Shown here piece after piece: positions 5,363 to 31,776 of a DNA stretch of 64,000 nucleotides. A model generated the notes under the pieces. It saw only the letters and a program-made list of their open reading frames with translations. It had not been told where the DNA came from and searched no databases. This DNA comes from an uncultured Actinomycetota bacterium (lineage in GTDB: Bacteria > Actinomycetota > Actinomycetes > Prado026), in NCBI GenBank assembly GCA_963711005.1, contig CAVQCJ010000003.1:160119-224118 (forward strand), in the 5' to 3' direction. The first letter of the stretch is position 1. Every line of letters begins with the position of its first letter. Position numbers and translations under genes: made by a program.

Positions 5363-6445
5363 TCACCCGCGCCGCTGGACCATCGGGCGGGCGGGCAGCC
5401 CCAGGAAGCGCAGCACGTCGCTCGCCTCCGCGTCGAGCGATGGTCGGGCCGAGGGCGGCACCTCACCCAGCACGTCAACGGTCACCGTGCCGCCGGGCAG
5501 CCCCCAGGTCGCGACGGCCCGTCCGTCGACCAGCACGACCGGGCGGAACACGCCGTTGGTGGTGACCACATGACGGTGCGCTCCGAGCACGCCGTCTCGG
5601 TCTGCCCAGCCCAGCAGCAGCGGGTCGAACGCGCCCAGCATCCGCACCACCGGTGCGCGCGGGGCATGGTCGCGGTCAGCCAGGTCGACGAGCCCTTCCG
5701 GTGTGGTCGACGTCTGCGCGCCGACCGCGTCCAGGCCGCGGCGTGCGTCGCCGACCGGGATGCCCGCCCACTTGGCGAGGTCGGCGGCGGTCGCCGGTCC
5801 GTGTCCCTCCAGATATCGCAGGGCCAGCCGGGCCAACGCGTCGTCGCGGTCCAGCGGCGCAGGGGACCGGCCCAGCCAGTGCGCCGGGTCGACGAACGCC
5901 TGCTCAGCGCCGACCACGGGTCCGCGGACGACCAACCCTTCCAGGGTGGCCGCGAGCAGGACGTGGACCAGCGCCTGCCCTTTGGTCGGCACTCCGTCCT
6001 CGTCCAGCAGATCCCTGAGCTGCCCGCGCGTCCGTCTCTGCCCCCCGGACACGGCCTCGCGCACCACGTCGATGCCGCGCGCCGCCTGGGCCGCGCTTAC
6101 CCCCTCCTGCCGAAGACGCCGGCGGTTCCCGGTGGCCAGCTGTGGGGTGGTGAGCGCGTGCAGCCACCAGTAGTCCGACCCCGTTACCAACTGCAGCGTG
6201 CCGCGGTTGAGCCAGCTGACCACCAGGGACCGGCGCTCGGTGAGCGCGGCGTCCACGTCCGCCGCGCGCACACCCGCCGCACGGGAACGGATCGCGAGTC
6301 GGAATCCGCGTGAGTCCTGGGCCTGAACCGCGAGCAAGTGCCGCGTCACATCCTCGGGACCCACCAGCGCCGGACGACTCAACCACTGCGCGCCCAGGCG
6401 CGCCCGCCACAGCTCGGACACTGTGGCCGGCGCACTCTTCGTCAC
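5363..6445 (-). CDS. winged-helix DNA-binding protein of the YcaQ/AlkZ-like (HTH_42) family
   Basis: ORF 5363..6517. LLAVQAQDSRGFRLAIRSR, VVSWLNRGTLQLV, LRYLEGHGPATAADLAKWAG, FDPLLLGW and VFRPVVLVDGRAVATW match my memory of this family. Start is GTG 6445 or ATG 6517. Confidence 0.75.
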   Translation of the reverse strand: MTKSAPATVSELWRARLGAQWLSRPALVGPEDVTRHLLAVQAQDSRGFRLAIRSRAAGVRAADVDAALTERRSLVVSWLNRGTLQLVTGSDYWWLHALTTPQLATGNRRRLRQEGVSAAQAARGIDVVREAVSGGQRRTRGQLRDLLDEDGVPTKGQALVHVLLAATLEGLVVRGPVVGAEQAFVDPAHWLGRSPAPLDRDDALARLALRYLEGHGPATAADLAKWAGIPVGDARRGLDAVGAQTSTTPEGLVDLADRDHAPRAPVVRMLGAFDPLLLGWADRDGVLGAHRHVVTTNGVFRPVVLVDGRAVATWGLPGGTVTVDVLGEVPPSARPSLDAEASDVLRFLGLPARPMVQRRG

Positions 6446-6510
6446 CCGCCCAGGGTACGAGCGACCAGGGCCAGCTGCACCGACGGACCGAGACCGGCCA
6501 CCGGGAGAAC
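5876..6510. repeat. 635-bp direct repeat, copy 1 (first 190 codons plus 65 nt upstream of the ycaQ-like gene)
   Basis: Colinear with 31142..31776 at a constant offset of 25266. I count 6 substitutions (6003, 6068, 6098, 6390, 6465, 6498) and no indels. Confidence 0.9.
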
Positions 6511-6549
6511 TGGCCATAGCGTCAGGTCGGCTGCTCTAGCGTCTGCAGG

Positions 6550-6795
6550 ATGGTGGACACGCGCCGCAACGCTCCCCGATGGGTCACCTGGTTGCTGATT
6601 GCCCTCGGTGCGCTTGTGCTGCTGGCGGCGGCCATGTATGCGGCGTTGCCGAGCCACGACCTCCCGACCTTCGTCCCCGGGTACAAGGTTGGTGCCGAAC
6701 GACATCACCGCGGTCACGCTCTCCTACTCCTTGGGTTCGCGGTCGTGACCTTCATAGGCGCGTGGCAGAGCGCCGGCCACCAAAGACGCGCCTGA
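6550..6795 (+). CDS. small two-TM membrane protein (paralog of 37811..38059)
   Basis: ORF 6550..6795. Helices PRWVTWLLIALGALVLLAAAMYA and ALLLLGFAVVTFIGAWQS flank a conserved PGYK.G....HHGHA. Roughly half the residues are shared with the ORF at 37811. Confidence 0.6.
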   Translation: MVDTRRNAPRWVTWLLIALGALVLLAAAMYAALPSHDLPTFVPGYKVGAERHHRGHALLLLGFAVVTFIGAWQSAGHQRRA

Positions 6796-6813
6796 ACGAC
6801 ACGTCGGTGCGGC
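6794..6813 (+). repeat. hairpin-repeat copy
   Basis: GAACGACACGTCGGTGCGGC. Overlaps the TGA stop (6793-6795) of the small membrane gene. Confidence 0.55.
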
Positions 6814-7031
6814 CGCGGTTGGGACCGTCCTCGGTGCGCTCTACCTGCGCGCGGCTCTTCCATTTGATTCGGCAAGGGTGTATACCGACGCCGTTCGGAC
6901 GCGGCGCAGTGCGCCTGCCCCCGCGCAGACAAGTGCGGCGGAGGGGGGTCCAGCCGCGGAAGGAGCTCGCCTGACGCCCCGCACCGCTACCTGGACTTTC
7001 CGCCTGGGGCAGCCCTTCAAGGAGGTCCGTC

Positions 7032-30243: not shown

Positions 30244-30403
30244 CAGGCGTTTCGTGAACCGGCCGTCCGCGAGCACATCCGCTGGCCATGCATAGCGCTT
30301 CCACCTGTGCCGGGACATCATGGTGGTGCGGGAGCATCGGTGCTGCACGCCGGGTCGGCGACTCCGGCGTCCACGTGCGAGTCCAAACGGACGGGGTTGA
30401 ATC

Positions 30404-30832
30404 GTGGCGGATGTGGTTGAGCAGTTGATCGCGGCGATGAACCGCCACGATGCGGGAGCTGTCGCGGCATTCTTCGCGGCTGACTATCGCAGCGAGCAGC
30501 CGCTGCATCCGAACCGTGGCTTCGGCGGGAGCGAGCAGGTTCTGGCGAACTGGATGTCGGTGTTCGAGGGTGTGCCGGACTTCGTCGCCGAGCAAGTTGC
30601 ATCCGCCTCCGCACAGGGCATGGTCTGGTCGGAGATGCGCTGGCAGGGCACGTATCGGGACGGAGCCCCCTTCCTGATGCGCGGGGTGATCGTGATCGGC
30701 CTACGCGACGACGAGATCGCGTGGGCGCGCCTGTACATGGAGCCAGTCGAGGAGGGTGGCACCGATATCGACGCTGCTGTTCAGGAGCTGTACCGCCCGC
30801 CCCATGCCGCGGATGGCGCAGCGGGCCCTTGA
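30404..30832 (+). CDS. NTF2-like / SnoaL-like protein
   Basis: ORF 30404..30832 (GTG start). VVEQLIAAMNRHDAGAVAAFFAADYRSEQP ... DEIAWARLYMEPV is typical of the fold. Confidence 0.7.
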   Translation: MADVVEQLIAAMNRHDAGAVAAFFAADYRSEQPLHPNRGFGGSEQVLANWMSVFEGVPDFVAEQVASASAQGMVWSEMRWQGTYRDGAPFLMRGVIVIGLRDDEIAWARLYMEPVEEGGTDIDAAVQELYRPPHAADGAAGP

Positions 30833-30884
30833 AGAGAACTTGGGAAGTGGCTCCCGCCGACTGATGCCGATCAGATCAGCTCGG

Positions 30885-30913
30885 TAACGGCACTTCTGTT
30901 CGGGGTGTCACCC
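30885..30913 (+). repeat. hairpin-repeat copy, extended variant
   Basis: TAACGGCACTTCTGTTCGGGGTGTCACCC. Shares TAACGGCA..TGTT..CGGGGTGTC.CCC with 59101-59133. Confidence 0.6.
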
Positions 30914-31063
30914 TTGTTCGCTGTCCAGAGTCGGGGGGGCAAATGGTGCGGAGTCGCGGTGAGCCGGTCTATGGCGACCCGTCGTTGCCTGCTAGCGCGA
31001 CGATCACGATGACTCATCGCTATGGCGGAGTTCTGAGCGGCTACCCCCTTGCCGTGGTCTGCG

Positions 31064-31776
31064 TTATGCGCAACCTGCTGCTCGGCTCTGTCGGCAGGTC
31101 GTTGGCGATGATGGTCTCGCCGTTCGTTCCGGTCTTGTAGACCAGTGCGCCGGGTCGACGAACGCCTGCTCAGCGCCGACCACGGGTCCGCGGACGACCA
31201 ACCCTTCCAGGGTGGCCGCGAGCAGGACGTGGACCAGCGCCTGCCCTTTGGTCGGCACTCCGTCCTCGCCCAGCAGATCCCTGAGCTGCCCGCGCGTCCG
31301 TCTCTGCCCCCCGGACACGGCCTCGCGCACCACATCGATGCCGCGCGCCGCCTGGGCCGCGCTGACCCCCTCCTGCCGAAGACGCCGGCGGTTCCCGGTG
31401 GCCAGCTGTGGGGTGGTGAGCGCGTGCAGCCACCAGTAGTCCGACCCCGTTACCAACTGCAGCGTGCCGCGGTTGAGCCAGCTGACCACCAGGGACCGGC
31501 GCTCGGTGAGCGCGGCGTCCACGTCCGCCGCGCGCACACCCGCCGCACGGGAACGGATCGCGAGTCGGAATCCGCGTGAGTCCTGGGCCTGAACCGCGAG
31601 CAAGTGCCGCGTCACATCCTCGGGACCCACCAGCGCCGGACGACTCAACCACTGCACGCCCAGGCGCGCCCGCCACAGCTCGGACACTGTGGCCGGCGCA
31701 CTCTTCGTCACCCGCCCAGGGTACGAGCGAGCAGGGCCAGCTGCACCGACGGACCGAGACCGGGCACCGGGAGAAC
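31064..31776 (-). pseudogene. truncated second copy of the ycaQ-like gene (first ~190 codons, then an unrelated tail)
   Basis: From VTKSAPATVSELW to AFVDPAHW, ORF 31064..31819 equals the 5363..6517 product except for two residues (A/V, D/G). It diverges at base 31141 into STRPERTARPSS..*. Confidence 0.85.
31142..31776. repeat. 635-bp direct repeat, copy 2
   Basis: See copy 1 (5876..6510). Homology ends abruptly on both sides. Confidence 0.9.

Follow-up and report, generated by a model that had tools for sequence, protein, structure and literature searches.

How does a bacterial gene come to be present twice within little more than 25 kb, once intact and once as its 5' end only, with many unrelated genes in between? 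This question is raised by a stretch of 64,000 nucleotides from an uncultured Actinomycetota bacterium (GTDB lineage Prado026; assembly GCA_963711005.1, contig CAVQCJ010000003.1, positions 160,119 to 224,118), here called the window, in which an intact AlkZ-like DNA glycosylase gene and a truncated twin of this gene enclose 24.6 kb of other DNA. An earlier note on the same sequence had offered two explanations, an island that was inserted by recombination within the gene and brought its own copy of the 5' end, or the remnant of a segmental duplication. The positions of the ancestral and novel joins in the window, determined by comparison with related genomes, fit the first of these best as far as the geometry is concerned.

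The repeat was delimited by an ungapped comparison, which gave a colinear direct repeat at 5876-6510 and 31142-31776 with an offset of 25,266 bp. The two copies were about 99% identical and differed by exactly six substitutions (copy 1/copy 2: 6003 T/C, 6068 G/A, 6098 T/G, 6390 G/A, 6465 C/G and 6498 C/G) and no indels, so that the coordinates, the number of differences and the period in the earlier note were all correct. Identity fell off abruptly just beyond both ends. This was the sole long direct repeat in the 64-kb window, in which no other duplicated stretch of 40 bp or more was found, and 99% identity across 635 bp cannot be due to chance.

Reading of the open reading frames and the extents of the PF06224 profile matches confirmed that copy 1 belongs to an intact gene and that copy 2 holds the upstream region plus 190 codons before it breaks off into unrelated sequence. 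The intact copy matched the full length of the profile (positions 2-329 of 329, E=6.4e-56), and copy 2 matched positions 2-160 only, retaining the QAQ catalytic motif without the C-terminal half of the domain. The frame of the intact gene is open up to an ATG at 6517; the relatives and the gene call in a public protein collection start further downstream, and the calls in that collection are 352 residues for the intact and 207 residues for the truncated protein (P0246).

The nearest genomes were metagenome-assembled Actinomycetota out of soil surveys, and their AlkZ genes were 96.9% (L085), 94.8% (L001), 91.6% (L091), 88.9% (L086/L087), 85.8% (L088) and 83.7% (L002-L004) identical to that of the window. 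Six of these relatives (L085, L001, L091, L086, L088 and L002) were colinear with the intact copy along its whole length, also across 5875/5876, and this position is therefore no breakpoint in copy 1. The homology of copy 2 ran past the repeat for 69 bp in L085 (to 31845) and for 59 bp in L001 (to 31835), and a block with the DUF4389 gene (31826-33203) was common to L090 (97.5%) and L089 (95.5%) from 31826-31830 onward. For copy 1, homology to all relatives ended at or before 6510. Given these limits, the joins of the gene body to copy 1 and of copy 2 to the right flank are ancestral, and those at 6510/6511 (J1) and 31141/31142 (J2) are novel. As read from the aligned sequences there are thus exactly two novel joins, which are the inner ends of both repeat copies, and this is the signature of insertion via a shared homologous segment.

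Since the outer joins are seamless and the inner joins novel, the homology for the event must have been provided by these 635 bp, and an insertion of the transposase type is ruled out on the same grounds. The history that we favour, and to which we would give about an even chance, is that 24.6 kb was inserted into AlkZ via shared homology and displaced the resident 5' end. The ancestral order would have been sigma-70 gene, AlkZ and DUF4389 gene, i.e. 1-5875 plus one copy of the repeat plus 31777 onward. Into this AlkZ, 24.6 kb of DNA of the same or a conspecific genome would have recombined that already bore a 5' fragment of AlkZ (65 bp upstream and 190 codons), with the upstream side of this fragment joined to other sequence. 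Two routes may be envisaged: a circular molecule with the repeat on it could have integrated by one homologous crossover (Campbell-type integration), or a homologous exchange in AlkZ could have been accompanied by an illegitimate joining of ends at codon 190 (homology-facilitated illegitimate recombination). In the latter case one illegitimate join suffices provided that AlkZ lay naturally beside 6511 onward in the donor strain, and such a donor is plausible because the upstream context of AlkZ differs in every relative, starting between 6432 and 6510. By either route an intact gene in a new upstream context would have arisen from the in-frame fusion of the incoming 5' fragment with the 3' part already in place, and the 5' part of the resident gene would have ended up 25,266 bp away, together with the upstream region native to it, as a truncated pseudogene. 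Both the recombination route and the origin of the insert are what we infer. RecA-dependent recombination between the two copies could still lead to loss or amplification of the unit of 25,266 bp.

With the relatives as outgroup, three of the six differences were derived in copy 1 and three in copy 2, with no amino acid change in the intact copy and two in the truncated copy, numbers that are too small for statistics. This pattern, as far as six sites in the sequence can tell, fits a selected gene beside a decaying fragment and fits equally two alleles of closely related strains. The divergence between the copies (0.94%) is well under the approximately 3% that separates the window from the closest relative. 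The near identity had been taken to imply a recent event or ongoing gene conversion; neither is required, and the differences could equally represent the divergence of two conspecific strains.

The sequences adjoining the novel joins, 280 bp at 6511-6790 and 250 bp at 30892-31141, matched nothing among the retrieved loci. Just past J2, on the minus strand at 31040-31141, lies a frame with a high GC content at third codon positions (GC3 of 0.88) that ends in ...YKTGTNGETIIANDLPTEPSSRLRITQTTARG* and may be what is left of the 3' end of a gene that the junction interrupted; a homolog of this sequence was not identified. By J1 there is a small open reading frame (6579-6974) with a membrane-like N-terminus, and for 6560-6768 there is a paralogous stretch of 61% identity at 37821-38029, 31 kb away. 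At the other end of copy 2, inverted repeats (31732-31744/31781-31793 and 31738-31766/31820-31848) span the native AlkZ-DUF4389 intergenic region, and the upstream limit of the repeat (31776/31777) falls between their arms. A hairpin at this limit was considered and rejected, the predicted fold being no better than that of shuffled sequences (z = -1.3).

If the inserted DNA were a foreign island, one would expect it to differ from its surroundings. Tetranucleotide usage of the enclosed segment correlated with that of flank pieces at r = 0.79-0.89, compared with 0.69-0.84 among the flank pieces themselves, and mean GC3 was 0.85 in the segment versus 0.83 and 0.875 in the flanks. The enclosed genes are ordinary or core-like, for example the MptB-type mannosyltransferase, an ABC transporter and a two-component system. 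No intact recombinase, replication, transfer/conjugation or phage genes were present in the annotation of the segment, and its only similarity to plasmids or phages was that of the widely conserved DUF899 gene. The enclosed segment is therefore not a recognizable foreign or mobile island, and the word island in the earlier note is not supported if a foreign mobile element is meant by it.

Several observations weigh against a homology-anchored insertion. The adjacency of the left flank to AlkZ in the ancestor is assumed, and the empty site was not found in searches with AlkZ homologs, the DUF4389 gene of the right flank and the first large gene of the insert (haloperoxidase-like): relatives at 84-98% identity carry AlkZ, DUF4389 and the haloperoxidase gene in unrelated contexts, and none of those retrieved, up to 97.5% identical, keeps synteny with either flank. 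The insert is without the signature of a circular or transferable element. J2 was spanned by no contig of eight public runs, and its exact 21-mer was absent from the JGI metagenome contigs. Finally, DUF899 is the immediate convergent neighbour of AlkZ in L002, L003 and L004 (11023-11703 in L002), and its ortholog in the window, with 90% amino acid identity, is found within the enclosed segment, oriented like the intact AlkZ and 2 kb upstream of it, a position that may point to a former neighbourhood of AlkZ in part of the insert. An inversion between AlkZ and DUF899, considered from coincident BLAST end points in the comparison with L002, was dropped as only weak similarity was present past the AlkZ stop codon.

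The DUF899 position and the native look of the enclosed DNA, in composition and in its core-like genes, lend support to the main rival, a history in two steps, in which the whole AlkZ unit (at least 5329-6510) was copied 25 kb away, to between the sigma-70 gene and 6511, and a later deletion cut away the 3' part of the original, creating 31141/31142; the 24.6 kb would then never have been inserted. Relocation of the unit is evident from its occurrence in at least six unrelated contexts with similar end points (5329-5352 and 6432-6510/31845). AlkZ-like genes are reported to have multiple copies and variable neighbourhoods in Streptomyces (PMC9040887), and the high-GC3 frame past J2 looks like the 3' end of another gene, which is what a deletion would be expected to leave behind. 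However, three novel joins and two events are needed here, compared with two joins and one event for an insertion. Moreover, the left flank is contiguous with 6511 onward in no relative and the region past J2 matches no AlkZ-downstream sequence among them. We consider this two-step history unlikely, if still worth keeping in mind.

The relatives also showed how readily genes change places in this lineage. Single-gene blocks that are 85-98% identical in nucleotide sequence were found in unrelated neighbourhoods and in different order, and in approximately 10 related contexts (L089-L093, L002, L086 and run X33) there was no synteny beyond one gene. Six contexts were found for AlkZ, two further ones for the DUF4389 block and two further ones for the haloperoxidase block (6791-8433). 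The 3.8-kb cyclase-ATPase block (43476-47273), 97.8% identical to L090, has a different order relative to DUF4389, and the SnoaL block ends at 30891 in run X33.

A short dispersed motif specific to this lineage, here called motif M, was located exactly where the homology of the AlkZ, haloperoxidase and DUF4389 blocks to the relatives begins. In an alignment of nine boundaries, homology between window and relative started at the motif and everything to its left differed. The 9-mer GCACGTCGG, of which the window has three copies, bounds the AlkZ block on the plus strand with two of them, at 5329 and 31832, and exact copies of the 14-mer CACGTCGGTGCGGC start at 6800 and 31833. When up to two mismatches were allowed, this 14-mer was found 13 times in the window versus 4.1 +/- 1.6 expected, a count reached in 0/100 shuffles. 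The motif was likewise enriched in close relatives (29 versus 11.5 expected) and not in 79 distant loci (88 versus 79). The best copies are intergenic, with a consensus of approximately 20 bp near gAaC-GG-CACnTCGGTGCGGc, and in L090 (8852, 9368 and 10807) and L091 (6273, 7059, 9421 and 11075) they lie at single-gene spacing on one strand. If motif M were a recombination site that delimits single-gene units, gene order in this lineage could be shuffled in cassette fashion and the split AlkZ would be one by-product of an unusually active shuffling guided by the motif; we regard this as distinctly improbable. A generic test for shared k-mers or hairpins at 18 block boundaries was not significant, the motif having come only from direct inspection, and it is present at only three of approximately 14 boundaries. 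That the motif has to do with gene shuffling is therefore to be taken as a lead and not as a result.

Given that the window is part of a 247-kb contig of a metagenome assembly, the possibility was considered that 31141/31142 stems from a chimeric read linking two strains or loci with AlkZ in different contexts. Related strains do have AlkZ in differing contexts, J2 is blunt and without microhomology, like an in-vitro chimera, and the lack of a public contig across it points the same way. A misjoin induced by the repeat would however swap paths within the repeat and not join the middle of a gene to unrelated sequence, and the six differences are phylogenetically coherent. Independent public runs from sediment, soil and peat metagenomes, in which the strain is represented at approximately 2x coverage as short contigs, also speak against an artefact. 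J1 was supported by a 215-bp contig of run X1 over 6395-6610 with no mismatches, covering both copy-1-specific alleles; run X6 had exact 151-mers across 5875/5876; and runs X26 and X27 had exact fragments at 30606-30835 and 31827-32019, on either side of J2. We therefore hold an artefact to be very unlikely.

A tandem or segmental duplication of a larger segment that was eroded to 635 bp would explain the direct orientation of the copies and would not be out of place in a region that is often rearranged. Such a duplication should, however, give one novel join and the same sequence after both copies, and in the window the two upstream flanks diverge at their very first base. Moreover, the ancestral flank belongs to that copy which would have to lie at the novel join. 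A plain tandem duplication is excluded by these differing flanks together with the lack of any other duplicated sequence, and the segmental duplication proposed in the earlier note is not supported as stated there; the eroded form we likewise hold to be very unlikely.

Least probable of all is a site-specific integrative element (prophage, integrative and conjugative element or its actinomycete counterpart) that targets AlkZ and carries a replacement 5' end. In its favour, the sequence on the element side restores an intact gene with the displaced fragment at the far end, and a tyrosine-recombinase (integrase) remnant lies inside the segment, with a counterpart 85% identical situated 2.5 kb upstream of AlkZ in L086 (951-1802) and L087 (42-444). 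This remnant, which is internally deleted, lies over 8 kb away from both ends (8.3 kb from J2, 15.8 kb from J1). Genes for phage functions, replication or conjugation are missing, similarity to plasmids or phages was not found, and the whole window has neither tRNA genes nor Rfam families; the composition is native, no other relative has an insertion at codon 190, and 635 bp at 99% identity far exceeds typical att duplications. A composite transposon or IS-mediated unit was rejected, as no significant IS30 end was found at J1 or J2 (control 41020-41150, z=15) and the sole internal IS trace is 82 bp long.

Of the mobile-element remnants named in the earlier note, one integrase remnant and the IS30 remnant were recovered; the second integrase remnant and the IS110 remnant were not, in a search that was not exhaustive. 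The IS110 transposase of L001, used as a query, gave no match in the window. A six-frame Pfam scan of the gaps in the segment for IS and integrase remnants gave no matches, with 7/10 gap sets searched and the known remnants missed too.

Motif M is also a hotspot for insertion of the IS30-family element. Three left ends of this family (in L091, in L085 and in the window remnant at 41041-41090) begin with GGTGGTCTCAG... directly after a copy of the motif. The element of L085 is at 1810-2236; in that of L091 (7074 to approximately 8292) the right end is followed by an inverted copy, which places the insertion point of this element in the middle of a palindromic motif pair. IS30 is known to prefer palindromic hot spots, a preference that insertion into a motif pair resembles. 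Given that neither J1 nor J2 has a significant IS30 end, the splitting of AlkZ was a separate event. Two long-range inverted repeat pairs were also seen in the window, one of 54 nt with 80% complementarity (2052-2105/24389-24442) that has motif-like sequence at 2087, and one of 53 nt with 87% complementarity (41099-41151/58563-58615) that adjoins the left-end remnant at 41029-41090; both pairs may be ends of decayed elements.

The features of the window are collected in Table 1.

Table 1. Features of the 64-kb window (strand given where the feature was assigned one)
Feature	Position	Strand	Remarks
Repeat copy 1 (R)	5876..6510		Codons 1-190 of the intact gene plus 65 bp upstream; ungapped comparison
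Repeat copy 2 (R')	31142..31776		Same 635 bp with 6 substitutions; ungapped comparison
Derived sites, copy 1 (intact)	6498, 6465		Upstream of start codon; relatives as outgroup
Derived site, copy 1 (intact)	6098		Synonymous (GTC>GTA); relatives as outgroup
Derived site, copy 2 (truncated)	31656		Ala>Val; relatives as outgroup
Derived site, copy 2 (truncated)	31269		Asp>Gly; relatives as outgroup
Derived site, copy 2 (truncated)	31334		Synonymous; relatives as outgroup
Novel junction J1	6510..6511		Homology of relatives to copy 1 ends at or before 6510
Novel junction J2	31141..31142		Blunt, no microhomology, within AlkZ reading frame
AlkZ-like DNA glycosylase gene, intact (PF06224/HTH_42)	5363..6445	-	360 codons, GTG at 6445, stop at 5363
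AlkZ pseudogene, truncated	31064..31711	-	190 native codons plus 25 unrelated codons, stop at 31064; fusion at 31141/31142
TACCCT hexamer	6452..6457	-	6 nt upstream of the GTG start; twin at 31718-31723 in copy 2
Native AlkZ upstream flank	31777..31845		Kept by copy 2 only; homologous to upstream regions of L085 and L001; runs into DUF4389 3' end
DUF4389 gene	31870..32652	-	Native upstream neighbour of the displaced AlkZ 5' end
ECF-type sigma-70 gene	4756..5229	-	Directly downstream of intact AlkZ, left flank
Enclosed segment	6511..31141		24,631 bp; mosaic of native-looking genes
Vanadium-haloperoxidase-like protein	7032-8345		Enclosed segment
DUF899	8521-9201		Enclosed segment
MptB-type mannosyltransferase	9549-11480		Enclosed segment
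Unknown protein	22912-24225		Enclosed segment
Ig-like protein, ABC-2 permease and ATPase, MucB/RseB-like, response regulator and histidine kinase (two-component system)			Further genes of the enclosed segment
ArAE-type exporter, cupin, TetR regulators, DivIVA-domain protein, CLC channel			Further genes of the enclosed segment
SRPBCC, fasciclin, RibD_C, 2-hydroxyacid dehydrogenase, AAA_18 kinase, SnoaL-like protein			Further genes of the enclosed segment
Tyrosine-recombinase (integrase) remnant	22289..22869	+	C-terminal catalytic part only; ~350-bp internal deletion versus L086 homolog
IS30-family transposase gene remnant	18252..18332	+	82 bp, 92.7% identical to L091 IS30 transposase gene; motif RPWQRGSNENTNGLLRQYFP
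IS30-family remnants	41029-41090, 18252-18332, 57785-57864		Only three in the window, all small
Motif M (GCACGTCGG...)	5329..5343	+	3' limit of AlkZ block; further copies at 6799-6813 and 31832-31846
Motif M, other copies	2087, 2497, 11072, 20340, 20686, 25921, 33994, 37829, 59985
Blocks shared with relatives	6791-8433, 8517-9272, 22289-22787, 26252-27082, 30605-30891, 31826-33203, 43476-47273

The glycosylase gene had been labelled ycaQ-like, which holds at the level of the PF06224 family and not at that of the subfamily. The catalytic motif is Q-phi-D in YcaQ-like (YQL) and (Q/H)-phi-Q in AlkZ-like (AZL) proteins (PMC9040887, PMC7367128). In the window the sequence V-Q-A-Q aligns on V-Q-A-Q of AlkZ (5UUJ), the only solved relative, and with QAQ instead of QxD the gene is therefore assigned, on its motif, to the AZL subfamily. 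The conserved gene neighbourhood of YQL genes was not observed, the neighbourhood of AlkZ being different in every relative. AZL genes are reported to be present in multiple copies with variable neighbourhoods in Streptomyces (PMC9040887). They are often located in or near genotoxin biosynthetic clusters, which is a tendency of the subfamily and not a strict requirement. The window gene resembles the subfamily in its full-length PF06224 match, in the Q-A-Q on the catalytic Q-phi-Q and in its variable neighbourhood, but differs from it in having no evident biosynthetic gene cluster around it: no PKS, NRPS or other cluster core was seen in the annotation of the window. An epoxide hydrolase gene (2249-3466) and the vanadium-haloperoxidase-like gene lie within a few kb of it, and glyoxalase/VOC genes adjoin the AlkZ copies of relatives L002 and L093.

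Upstream of the start codon the hexamer TACNNT was conserved in every relative of the AlkZ alignment. From what is generally known of actinobacterial promoters, we take it to be the putative -10 box of a leaderless transcript, and since it is kept in both copies the fragment may still be transcribed. Scans for sigma-70 promoter and terminator consensus sequences were uninformative and found nothing. Elsewhere in the window are two very large signalling proteins, one with zinc-ribbon, adenylate-cyclase, AAA_16 and TPR domains (43505-47545, 1346 aa) and one of BTAD/nSTAND1 NTPase/WD40 type (59996-64000) that continues past the window end. The right flank also holds a ScyD/ScyE-family protein (34959-36212, E=2e-65), to which there is a weak second match in the left flank (3815-4843).

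The rearrangement is of a known and ordinary kind, found here in a hyper-variable region of an uncultured soil actinobacterium. The element e14 and phage 21 integrate into icd of E. coli by means of an integrase and a short core, with approximately 165 bp duplicated at the 3' end of the gene. There, as here, the target gene stays intact through a near-identical replacement end and the displaced end becomes a pseudogene on the opposite side, but the window lacks a functional integrase, its 635-bp duplication concerns the 5' end and its cargo does not resemble a phage. In Streptomyces, type II amplifiable units of DNA (AUDs) are chromosomal units of tens of kb between direct repeats of 0.6-2 kb that undergo RecA-dependent deletion or tandem amplification. 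The window likewise has an actinobacterial unit of tens of kb between direct repeats, for which the same RecA-dependent deletion or amplification is predicted; its repeats, however, are a gene fragment and not dedicated repeat sequences.

Campbell-type integration, or insertion-duplication via a cloned gene fragment, shares with the window an insert bracketed by a direct duplication of exactly the shared segment, one copy intact and the other truncated at the end of the fragment, and reversibility by homologous recombination. The difference is that no circular vector, plasmid or element can be recognized here and that the insert has the look of ordinary DNA from the chromosome of this lineage. 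There are documented precedents for homology-facilitated illegitimate recombination and for displaced fragments of genes (PMC3240628, PMC5361080). In the Rhs and type VI secretion system (T6SS) effector arrays a conserved 5' core anchors the repeated replacement of variable 3' toxin tips, leaving displaced 'orphan' fragments (PMC3240628, PMC5361080). The likeness to homology-facilitated illegitimate recombination and to Rhs orphans lies in the combination of one homologous anchor with one illegitimate join, by which the resident part would be displaced but persist, sharing sequence with the functional copy. In contrast to the arrays, it is the 5' end of a repair gene that would have been displaced here, only once and with 24.6 kb of unrelated cargo included.

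The locus would be a clean natural case of tens of kb being inserted with a fragment of a gene as anchor, leaving one working gene and one displaced pseudogene, and the 25 kb that it delimits could be lost or multiplied by homologous recombination. A new upstream region, with only 65 bp of the native one, now precedes the intact AlkZ-like repair gene, and the regulation of this gene could change. Genes that are 95-98% identical and yet found in wholly different neighbourhoods make this lineage useful for the study of gene flux in uncultured soil Actinomycetota and of the part that motif M and the IS30-family element may have in driving it.

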